From: a virus
Direction: 5' to 3' (one strand)
DNA: 48,939 nt
Virus record (IMG/VR): IMGVR_UViG_3300028886_000137
Location: 1 to 48,939 of that record
Shown here: positions 46,408 through 47,414 of the stretch, piece after piece
How the letters are laid out: each line of letters starts with the position of its first letter
Numbering within the stretch: the stretch's first letter is position 1
Notes under the pieces: generated by a model
Told to the model about the DNA's origin: nothing
Seen by the model: the letters and a program-made list of their open reading frames with translations, nothing else
The model's database searches: none
Translations under genes and position numbers: made by a program

Positions 46408-46459
46408 TTAGTGCGGGTAGCCGGACTTGAACCGGCACGGATTAACTCCGAGGGATTTT

Positions 46460-47240
46460 CCTGCCACTCTATGTTTCCATAGCCGATATAAAATCGTTGT
46501 GGTCTGGACTATGTTTTCACCTTATCATATTATATGACTTAGGTGGATGGTCTATAGTCTCTACACATTTATTTTTGGGTTTTTATATTTTTACCTCTAT
46601 AAGTATTTGTTAAAGCATGACAATTTGGACAAAGATAATGTAAATTTTCAATTCTATTATCTTTATTATCTCCATTTTTATGATCTATTTCTAAAGAAAT
46701 AATACCATTTTGCCAATGTCCATCACAACCGCAGTTTTCACAAATATAAGGTAATATTTTATGTCTTTCAACATATCCTCTTAAAACTTTTTGTGTTACT
46801 GGACTATTTTTAACAAATACTTCATCTAAAGAATATTTTTCTGTACTAACAATTCTATTATCCTACTCTTTAGTTTTACCTTTATTCCAAAGCTAACCTG
46901 TAAAATGTGAAATATCTATATTAAATTCTTCAATTTTTTTCTTTAAGGTTGCTTGATTTCCACCAGCCTATTTTCGACCAGCTTTTCGTAAAACTTCAGC
47001 TAAAGAATAACTTTCTTTGCAAAGTTCAGTTAACCATTCTTTATCATATTTTCTTAATGCCATAATAAATTCCTCCAAAAACTTTTTTCTTTCATAAAAA
47101 TATGGAAGACGTTTTTGATAAATTATTACGGTCTACCCAAAAAATTTAGCTCGGCGTTCTCTTAGCCTTTCGCCGAATTAGCCACCTTCACTTATAATAT
47201 TTCTATTATAAGGCTCTGAACTTTTATGTTGCTAAGATAA
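46460..47240 (-). mobile_element. group I intron in the tRNA-Leu(UAA) anticodon loop, carrying an HNH endonuclease ORF
   Basis: Canonical cyanobacterial/plastid-type insertion position. 781 nt. Exon 5' end is U, intron 3' end is G. Confidence 0.6.
46569..47063 (-). CDS. HNH homing endonuclease (intron-encoded), 3 in-frame TAG
   Basis: SD ggagg. ...IDHKNGDNKDNRIENLHYLCPNCHA... HNH motif. Confidence 0.7.
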
Positions 47241-47414
47241 AAGTCCCTTGTGTCTGCCTATTCCACCATACCCGCATAAAATTTTCTACAAGACAGCTTA
47301 TTTGATTATTATAACTGGATTCGAACCAGTAAGAAAAACGTGGAGGGTTTTTTGTATATCCTAATACTATTTATCAAGTAAGATTAAAATTTGCTGTATC
47401 TGTCTTTACTTAAA

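Follow-up and report, generated by a model that had tools for sequence, protein, structure and literature searches.

Does the 781-nucleotide (nt) sequence that divides a transfer RNA (tRNA) gene in an uncultured phage behave as an intron, so that a tRNA can still be made, or has the gene been lost to the endonuclease gene that the sequence carries? The question is raised by IMG/VR record IMGVR_UViG_3300028886_000137 (48,939 nt), here called the window, to which all window coordinates below refer; in this record, a tRNA-Leu(UAA) gene on the minus strand is interrupted by an insert encoding an HNH endonuclease. We found that the insert is a group I intron, as an earlier note on this DNA had proposed, and consider it highly probable that the locus as a whole is a phage tRNA-Leu(UAA) gene split at U34/A35 by a self-splicing group I intron with an HNH homing endonuclease gene in the loop of helix P6.

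The split tRNA-Leu(UAA) gene

When the two exons were joined, ARAGORN reported a clean type II tRNA-Leu(taa) with a long variable arm, a perfect 7-base-pair (bp) acceptor stem (GCGGGTA/TACCCGC), a 5-bp anticodon stem (AGGGA/TCCCT) and the loop CTTAAAA, in agreement with the stems and loop described in the earlier note. The 5' exon, whose 3' terminus reads ..AAGGGACTT, comprises the 5' strand of the acceptor stem, the D arm, the 5' strand of the anticodon stem and C32, U33 and U34, and the 3' exon comprises A35 and A36 onward, the variable arm, the T arm, the 3' strand of the acceptor stem and the discriminator A. The insert ends in ..GGCAGG (..GTGGCAGG) and lies between U34 and A35, with both the U at position -1 and the terminal G (omega G) present; its length, its site and these two terminal bases were thus as previously claimed. 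The split gene was missed by standard ARAGORN and by Rfam in scans of the window. At least 11 tRNA genes, one being tRNA(CUA), form the minus-strand array to which it belongs, so that the position of the cyanobacterial and plastid trnL intron is, as had been noted, occupied here within a phage tRNA array. UUA accounts for 42% of the leucine codons and is the commonest leucine codon of the phage.

Evidence for the group I fold

To describe the family to which the insert belongs, we aligned 41 distinct short viral introns with the window copy left out (alignment A1), and a covariance model, R1, was built from A1 and hence also without the window. Within the 49-kb window, R1 gave exactly two matches, both on the minus strand and on either side of the open reading frame (ORF): one at 46452-46657 (60.5 bits, E 2e-14), whose well-aligned part contains J6/7, P7, P3', P8, P7', P9, the terminal G and the 3' exon, and one at 47078-47225 (32.5 bits, E 4e-7), containing the guide sequence, P2, P3, P4 and the 5' strand of P6. 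Because a model built without the window found only the two intron halves in 49 kb, the fold of the insert is more than a chance resemblance.

The structure of the family was also recovered without prior assumptions. RNAalifold applied to A1 returned the anticodon stem of the exons together with P2, P3, P4, P5, P6, P8 and P9, with compensatory changes in 32 of the 45 pairs. In the full group I structure, in which P1 and the pseudoknot of P7 were also written out, 95.9% of the cells were standard pairs, both partners had changed in 35 of 55 pairs and the covariation score was 0.513, values reached in none of 500 column shuffles; when the 3' partners were slid by 1-3 columns, pairing fell to 30-41% (at most 41.5%) and the score to 0.098 or less. 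In 41/41 relatives, the 5' splice site shows the U.G wobble with U-A and C-G pairs below it, and the P7 pseudoknot was 100% paired in the same 41, with a bulged A beside a G-C pair and two pairs compensatory. A base-by-base check showed that every helix is intact in the window. The core elements P3 to P7 and a putative guanosine-binding site, which the earlier note wished to see located in 46460..47240, were therefore found there, and G46460 directly precedes the 3' exon in the context G|AAAAT, which is invariant across the viral family.

Features of the intron and of its surroundings are collected in Table 1, in the order in which the minus strand is read. The family-conserved core of the guide is GAGCC (47216-47212), and not a sequence near AAGTTC, where the earlier note had placed it. 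AAGTTC was rejected as the catalytic strand of P1: it gives a U-A rather than a U.G pair, is absent from the relatives and belongs to a competitor helix considered below. Similarly, CCACC was ruled out as the 3' strand of P3, because family covariation assigns CACC to P8. In P7 of the window, G46561 pairs with C46506, A46560 is bulged and G46559 pairs with C46507, an arrangement invariant in the 41 relatives; by analogy, P7 is the putative guanosine-binding site. P6 is the site of length variation across the whole viral family. In addition, hexamers in L1 and L5 were complementary and occurred as three covarying variants, CTTAGC/GCTAAG, CTTGGC/GCCAAG and CCTAAC/GTTAGG; such hexamer pairs were seen in L129, L130, L139 and L162 (handles with L denote contigs carrying family members or related genes), the variant CTTGGC/GCCAAG being present also in L162, which is otherwise divergent. 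The covariation suggests a loop-loop tertiary pairing between L1 and L5, and a pseudoknot of this kind may replace P5.

Table 1. Features of the tRNA-Leu(UAA) locus in the window
Feature	Position	Strand	Sequence or content	Basis or remark
Amber-suppressor tRNA(CUA)	47734-47825	-		ARAGORN; Rfam tRNA 54.5 bits; ~0.5 kb from HNH gene
tRNA-Leu(UAA) 5' exon	47275-47241	-	GCGGGTATGGTGGAATAGGCAGACACAAGGGACTT, 35 nt, last base U	Sequence; ARAGORN on joined exons
Group I intron (insert)	47240-46460	-	781 nt, first intron base to terminal G46460	
L1 loop	47237-47231	-	UCUUAGC	Complementary to L5 loop; candidate tertiary pairing
Competitor helix, 3' strand	47227-47218	-	AUAAAAGUUC	Pairs with GGACUU|UUAU, 10 bp, versus canonical P1
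Internal guide sequence	47217-47212	-	AGAGCC	P1: U34.G47216 wobble, U33-A47215, C32-G47214
P2 hairpin	47211-47192	-	UUAUAAUA-GAAA-UAUUAUAA	8 bp intact; family P2 pairs compensatory 7/7
P3, 5' strand	47186-47182	-	GGUGG	Pairs with CCAUC; family P3 pairs compensatory 6/6
P4	47176-47151	-	UCGGCG/CGCCGA	Closes 14-nt loop containing GCUAAGA (47166-47160)
P6, 5' strand	47142-47135	-	UUUUGGGU	Pairs with ACCCAAAA (46580-46573); 8 bp intact; ORF in P6 loop
Shine-Dalgarno sequence	47076-47071	-	GGAGGA	7 nt upstream of ATG of HNH gene
HNH homing-endonuclease gene (putative)	47063-46569	-	164 codons + TAA	3' end overlaps 3' strand of P6
P7, 5' strand	46561-46555	-	G-(A bulge)-GACUA	Inferred guanosine-binding helix
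P3, 3' strand	46550-46546	-	CCAUC	Family covariation; base check
P8	46545-46518	-	Outer CACC/GGUG + inner hairpin UCAUA-UAA-UAUGA	
P7, 3' strand	46511-46506	-	UAGUCC	Family structure; base check
P9 domain	46502-46464	-	CCAC/GUGG around hairpins CGAU-UUUAU-AUCG and CUAUG-GAAA-CAUAG	
tRNA-Leu(UAA) 3' exon	46459-46412	-	AAAATCCCTCGGAGTTAATCCGTGCCGGTTCAAGTCCGGCTACCCGCA, 48 nt, starts AAAATCCCT	Sequence; ARAGORN

The HNH gene and the reading of TAG

The ORF within the intron, which contains IDHKNGDNKDNRIENLHYLCPNCH, has three in-frame TAG codons (46970-46968, 46895-46893 and 46865-46863). Its product scored 26.6 bits against Pfam HNH_3 (cut-off 24.8), retains an HNH motif with flanking Cys pairs (CENCGC...DH..GD...N...N...CPNCH) and matched phrog_10822 'HNH endonuclease' with an E value of 1.7e-49 over residues 3-162, a span that includes all three TAG positions. 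The earlier description of an HNH gene preceded by a Shine-Dalgarno sequence and itself using TAG codons was thereby borne out. A sequence search of the PDB with the protein returned only a distant match to the HNH of McrA (E 0.005), and blastn/megablast searches of GenBank phages with the region and with 24 kb of the window returned HNH-motif matches only, or none. No exact match to the contig was detected in IMG/VR or in JGI metagenomes; a look-up by protein identity led to Logan assemblies of run SRR9008757, the match listed lying on a 12.8-kb contig. Judged by its sequence, the product is a putative homing endonuclease, for which cleavage of a target and homing are predicted.

TAG is a sense codon in the window. 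The lysin gene at 20341-22740 has nine in-frame TAGs, yet its product shows Pfam domains (Amidase_2, SH3, Phage_lysozyme2 and ELLD) over residues 21-789; reading TAG as sense raises the coverage of the window by long ORFs from 63% to 80%; and the tRNA(CUA) gene of the window, which has no intron, lies close to the HNH gene. The residue inserted is probably glutamine: the closest HNH homolog, in L149 (80% identical), has Q, Q and E at the three TAG sites, two of the three have Q more often than any other residue among the homologs, and GIY-YIG paralogs within the window show YIGQT versus YIG[TAG]T and YVG[TAG]A. Against glutamine speaks the long variable arm of the suppressor tRNA(CUA), unlike that of tRNA-Gln. 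Since the HNH genes of L292, L293 and L294 likewise contain TAG only, at different positions, the gene appears to evolve as a translated gene in recoded phages, and because it has three TAG sense codons the endonuclease would be made only when tRNA(CUA) is active.

Three further minus-strand ORFs resembling GIY-YIG endonucleases (2146-2835, 9489-10541 and 16112-16852) contain 2, 5 and 8 in-frame TAGs, respectively, two of which lie in the YIGQT-type motif. All four genes of the window that resemble selfish nucleases, that is, these three and the intron HNH gene, thus need the suppressor.

Distribution of the intron family

Viral contigs were searched for core sequences of the intron. A loose pattern, AGGGACTT..GAGCCTT, was abandoned, as only one (L102) of the 120 viral loci that it found was real, and two more specific patterns were used instead. 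The 5'-core pattern (GAGCCTT..AAGTG..CTAATTCGG) matched 21 viral contigs, 13 of which carry this tRNA-Leu(UAA) gene interrupted, at the position used in the window, by 216-422 nt without an ORF. The 3'-core pattern (GTGTAGAGRCY..AGTCCRGAC) occurred in more than 120 viral contigs among the matches listed, and 113 of the 135 listed core matches fell within intron-split tRNA genes. At least 76 viral contigs have a tRNA-Leu(UAA) split at ACTT|...G|AAAAT, the same site as in the window. Among the 76 listed viral tRNA-Leu introns, 20 were 626-877 nt long, and 17 of these long introns encode HNH homologs (33-80% identity), placed either in P6 or in the loop of P1, four of them antisense; L149/L291 and L293 have exactly the architecture of the window intron. 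Homologs were also found as free-standing genes between tRNA genes in L292 and L294-L296 (55-71% identity) and, in L124, immediately downstream of a tRNA-Leu gene that itself contains an intron (38% identity). L305 and L307 have intron-less alleles of tRNA-Leu(UAA) whose acceptor stem is the same.

The family is not confined to uncultured contigs. The cultured jumbo phage Atu_ph07 of Agrobacterium (NC_042013.1, ~112.9-113.2 kb; L303 687-980) carries an intron-split tRNA-Leu(UAA) whose intron matched R1 with 183 bits (E 7.6e-48) and whose tRNA is unannotated; a coding sequence annotated there as 'hypothetical protein' overlaps the last bases of the intron and the 3' exon. Since even this cultured phage has an unannotated split tRNA, standard tools probably undercount the tRNAs of phages. 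R1 was also matched at full length by two records of an uncultured phage of 735 kb. The 5'-core pattern was present, as pattern-level matches, in 32 bacterial-genome contigs, nearly all metagenome-assembled genomes and mostly of Omnitrophota and Planctomycetota; some of these 'genome' contigs, namely L281 and L280, carry tRNA arrays and look like binned phage.

Members of the family were observed in other tRNA genes as well. In L127, L128, L132, L136 and L140, spliced homologs 74-82% identical to the window tRNA(CUA) carry an intron of this family at CUCU|AAA (U35|A36), and opal-type tRNA(UCA) genes in L144 and L178 carry one at CUU|CAAA. As suppressor tRNA genes themselves contain introns, splicing could gate the code switch in those phages. 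The intron of L123 has a ~100-nt tRNA-like insert in P9 (..GGTTCGAATCC..), possibly a tRNA nested in a tRNA intron.

Alternative explanations

Other readings of the locus concern the register of the junction, the nature of the insert and the state of its ORF. When introns were allowed, ARAGORN found the gene with both junctions slid by 1 nt and called it tRNA-Phe(gaa) i(35,781); the junctions would then be shifted leftwards by one base (..ACU|U ... CAG|G), the spliced tRNA would have the anticodon GAA (Phe), and since the intron ends in GG, a terminal G is usable in either register. This register was dropped after comparison with the junctions of the viral relatives. The base before their terminal G is A, C, G or T whereas G|AAAAT is constant, which places the junction at U34|A35; moreover, U34 pairs with the guide G in 41/41 relatives and the tRNA body, being type II with a long variable arm, is Leu-like and not Phe-like, so that the probability left to the Phe register is negligible. 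It is just as hard to conceive that a free-standing HNH cassette inserted into the tRNA gene and destroyed it, with no intron involved. Homologous HNH genes do stand free between tRNA genes in the arrays of L292, L294, L295 and L296, and one lies just downstream of tRNA-Leu in L124, but here ~290 nt of non-coding sequence around the ORF match the group I model (E 2e-14 and 4e-7), and ORF-less RNAs of 178-330 nt fill the same site in dozens of contigs. A decaying, untranslated HNH pseudogene with three premature stops is slightly easier to imagine, as the standard bacterial code breaks the frame three times and a standard ORF listing yields only a first piece of 36 amino acids. However, all three stops are TAG, with no TGA or TAA, the profile match is unbroken over residues 3-162, the HNH and Cys motifs farther along the frame are preserved, the close relatives in L292, L293 and L294 also carry TAG only and elsewhere in the gene, and conserved genes of the window likewise read through TAG, with tRNA(CUA) 0.5 kb away; we therefore regard decay of the gene as very unlikely.

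A more serious rival is that the insert is a genuine group I relic which no longer splices efficiently, so that this copy of tRNA-Leu is dead or crippled and merely carries a selfish endonuclease. Several observations do weigh against a self-splicing intron. Rfam Intron_gpI (RF00028), which the earlier note had suggested as a check, gave no match in the window at the gathering threshold (50 bits) and, at a permissive E-value setting, a match of 18 bits (E 0.07) to the 5' part only. The suggestion succeeded with the ORF-less relatives L135 (61.5 bits) and L164 (67.9 bits), both above the cut-off of 50, and we attribute the failure in the window to the ~550-nt insert (495-nt ORF plus leader) in the P6 loop, which splits the core. 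The main structural doubt lies in the competitor helix, GGACUUUUAU/AUAAAAGUUC (within 47218-47248), which is specific to the window, where two extra bases are present relative to L137, and which pairs the splice-site U with an A. P1, which the earlier note had asked to be folded, is present in its canonical U.G form, but the minimum free energy of the 5' region folded in isolation favours the competitor (-13.9 kcal/mol, as against -7.2 kcal/mol when the canonical P1 is imposed); the 5' splice site would thus be sequestered in a structure 6.7 kcal/mol more stable, whereas L137 and L131 fold to the canonical P1. According to this folding model, the helix could slow or misdirect the first splicing step, and it might be either a folding trap or a regulatory alternative. 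In addition, the sub-lineage of the window lacks a local P5 hairpin, the L1-L5 match comprises three variants only and, taken sequence by sequence, mostly failed to reach significance in comparison with shuffles, and a second tRNA-Leu(taa) was called by ARAGORN at 44096-44187. We infer splicing itself, the endonuclease target, homing and timing through recoding from sequence. Loss of splicing is nevertheless clearly unlikely in our view: the core helices are all intact, as are the U.G wobble, P7 with its bulged A and the terminal G, the exons keep a perfect cloverleaf, the second 'Leu(taa)' is doubtful because of its G33 and odd anticodon arm, UUA is the commonest leucine codon, and sister introns are also without P5 and have covarying L1/L5. 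The interpretation of the insert as a self-splicing intron in the tRNA-Leu(UAA) gene is therefore retained.

Proposed mechanism

In the self-splicing intron that we favour, the guide GAGCC would pair with C32-U33-U34 of the exon and set U34 in the U.G wobble, a free guanosine bound in P7 would attack after U34, and the terminal G46460 would then occupy the same site, allowing the exons to be ligated into an 83-nt tRNA. This tRNA-Leu would read UUA. The HNH product, translated from its own ribosome-binding site, presumably cuts or nicks intron-less tRNA-Leu alleles of co-infecting relatives, and repair of the cut allele would copy the intron in. Indirect evidence for such homing comes from the occurrence of alleles with and without the intron and from the recurrence of this protein family in tRNA-Leu introns. 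Synthesis of the HNH product may be limited to phases in which the phage tRNA(CUA) is active.

A wider proposal is that tRNA-gene introns, rather than being parasites only, form part of an infection timing circuit in recoded phages, and that phage arrays spread the 'ancient' intron among bacterial phyla; we consider this combination speculative and rather unlikely. If the timing part were true, ribozyme activity would determine how much tRNA is available for the commonest leucine codon and, in L127, L132, L136, L140, L144 and L178, also how much amber or opal suppressor tRNA there is; the intron endonuclease would be translatable only after the code switch. If the second part were true, phage tRNA arrays would be an overlooked vector of the tRNA-Leu(UAA) intron between bacterial phyla.

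Neighbouring genes

Three further tRNA-like sequences were observed near the split gene or elsewhere in the window, all on the minus strand. The second tRNA-Leu(taa) call (44096-44187), with its G33 and irregular anticodon arm, became Leu(gag) with a 10-nt insert when introns were allowed. Directly downstream of tRNA-Leu lies a 116-nt tRNA-like gene (46292-46407; Rfam tRNA 36.9 bits) in which a 53-nt stretch replaces the anticodon loop and which intron-allowing ARAGORN reported as Lys(ttt) with a 34-nt insert; a tRNA-like match of equal length, 116 nt, is present in the relative L139 (L139:1233-1348). Just upstream of the 5' exon is a degenerate tRNA-like sequence (47306-47376) with acceptor-stem mismatches, which scored 27 bits against the Rfam cut-off of 29 and in which ARAGORN found nothing. 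Farther away on the same strand, the product of a gene at 38241-40682 has shoulder and repeat domains of the major vault protein, and the adjoining gene (40736-42292) encodes a DUF2828/DUF7788 protein, an unusual pair for a phage.

Comparison with known systems

The components of the locus are all of known kinds: a group I intron of the class termed 'Leu.3Ug', an HNH gene housed in a peripheral loop, and TAG recoding. What makes the locus valuable is that it is set in a phage tRNA array and is one among many unreported viral cases. In its 5' layout of GAGCC, UU, P2 hairpin and AAGUG and in its P3-P9 core order, the intron corresponds to the cyanobacterial and plastid trnL intron, and it presumably resembles the plastid trnL intron in sequence. 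Site 34/35 of tRNA-Leu(UAA) is that of the classical 'Leu.3Ug' intron of subgroup IC3 (10.1101/2020.01.27.920355), and by insertion site the window intron would belong to the same lineage, the label IC3 being taken from the literature on this insertion class. The cyanobacterial and plastid tRNA-Leu(UAA) intron, as in Nostoc/Anabaena PCC 7120, interrupts the same gene at the same site, CUU|...g|AAAA (10.1101/2020.01.27.920355; PMC13011429). Classical tRNA-Leu introns are ~250 nt long and ORF-less, whereas the window copy resides in a TAG-recoded phage and not in a cell or plastid, with coding sequence for a protein inserted in P6, no local P5 hairpin and a long loop on P1 that is complementary to L5. 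As the textbook example of an 'ancient' intron, the tRNA-Leu(UAA) intron has long been the subject of debate over whether it spreads horizontally; carriage by phages, a homing endonuclease, intron-less alleles and dozens of like contigs together provide a concrete vehicle of transfer.

Within their protein-coding genes, phages are known to carry group I introns that encode HNH endonucleases, for example SPO1 I-HmuI, which likewise combines a group I intron and an HNH gene in a lytic phage; the host gene in the window is instead a tRNA. A review in 2014 placed all phage introns then known in protein-coding genes, despite the many phage tRNA genes (PMC3984707), and our searches of the literature outside subscription journals revealed no account of a group I intron in a phage tRNA gene. 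Among bacteria, a 2026 survey of complete genomes recorded 333 tRNA introns, only 12 of them with an endonuclease gene (PMC13011429), one of the 12 being an HNH gene in a Bacteroidota tRNA-Leu(UAA) intron of >500 bp (PMC13011429, Fig. 6 legend). Compared by its description, the Bacteroidota intron shares the tRNA and the endonuclease superfamily with the window intron, but it is located on a bacterial chromosome. The Lak megaphages have short 'enigmatic' tRNA introns that are not group I (10.1101/356790), which the 116-nt tRNA-like gene at 46292-46407 resembles.

Free-standing homing endonucleases are present in phage tRNA clusters, namely T4 SegB and T5 F-TflI/II/IV (PMC2330249); the window endonuclease is likewise in a tRNA array, but its gene lies inside an intron, and SegB is of the GIY-YIG and not the HNH type. 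For the 'Agate' phages, in which an intron endonuclease gene contains reassigned stops, a delay of translation until the code switch has been proposed (10.1101/2021.08.26.457843). An endonuclease dependent on an amber suppressor would be the second natural case, after Agate, of a selfish gene brought under the control of the genetic code, and bears on how recoding may restrain selfish genes. The two differ in that the Agate phages read TGA as Trp and have the intron in an early protein gene, whereas in the window the recoded codon is TAG and the host gene is a tRNA.

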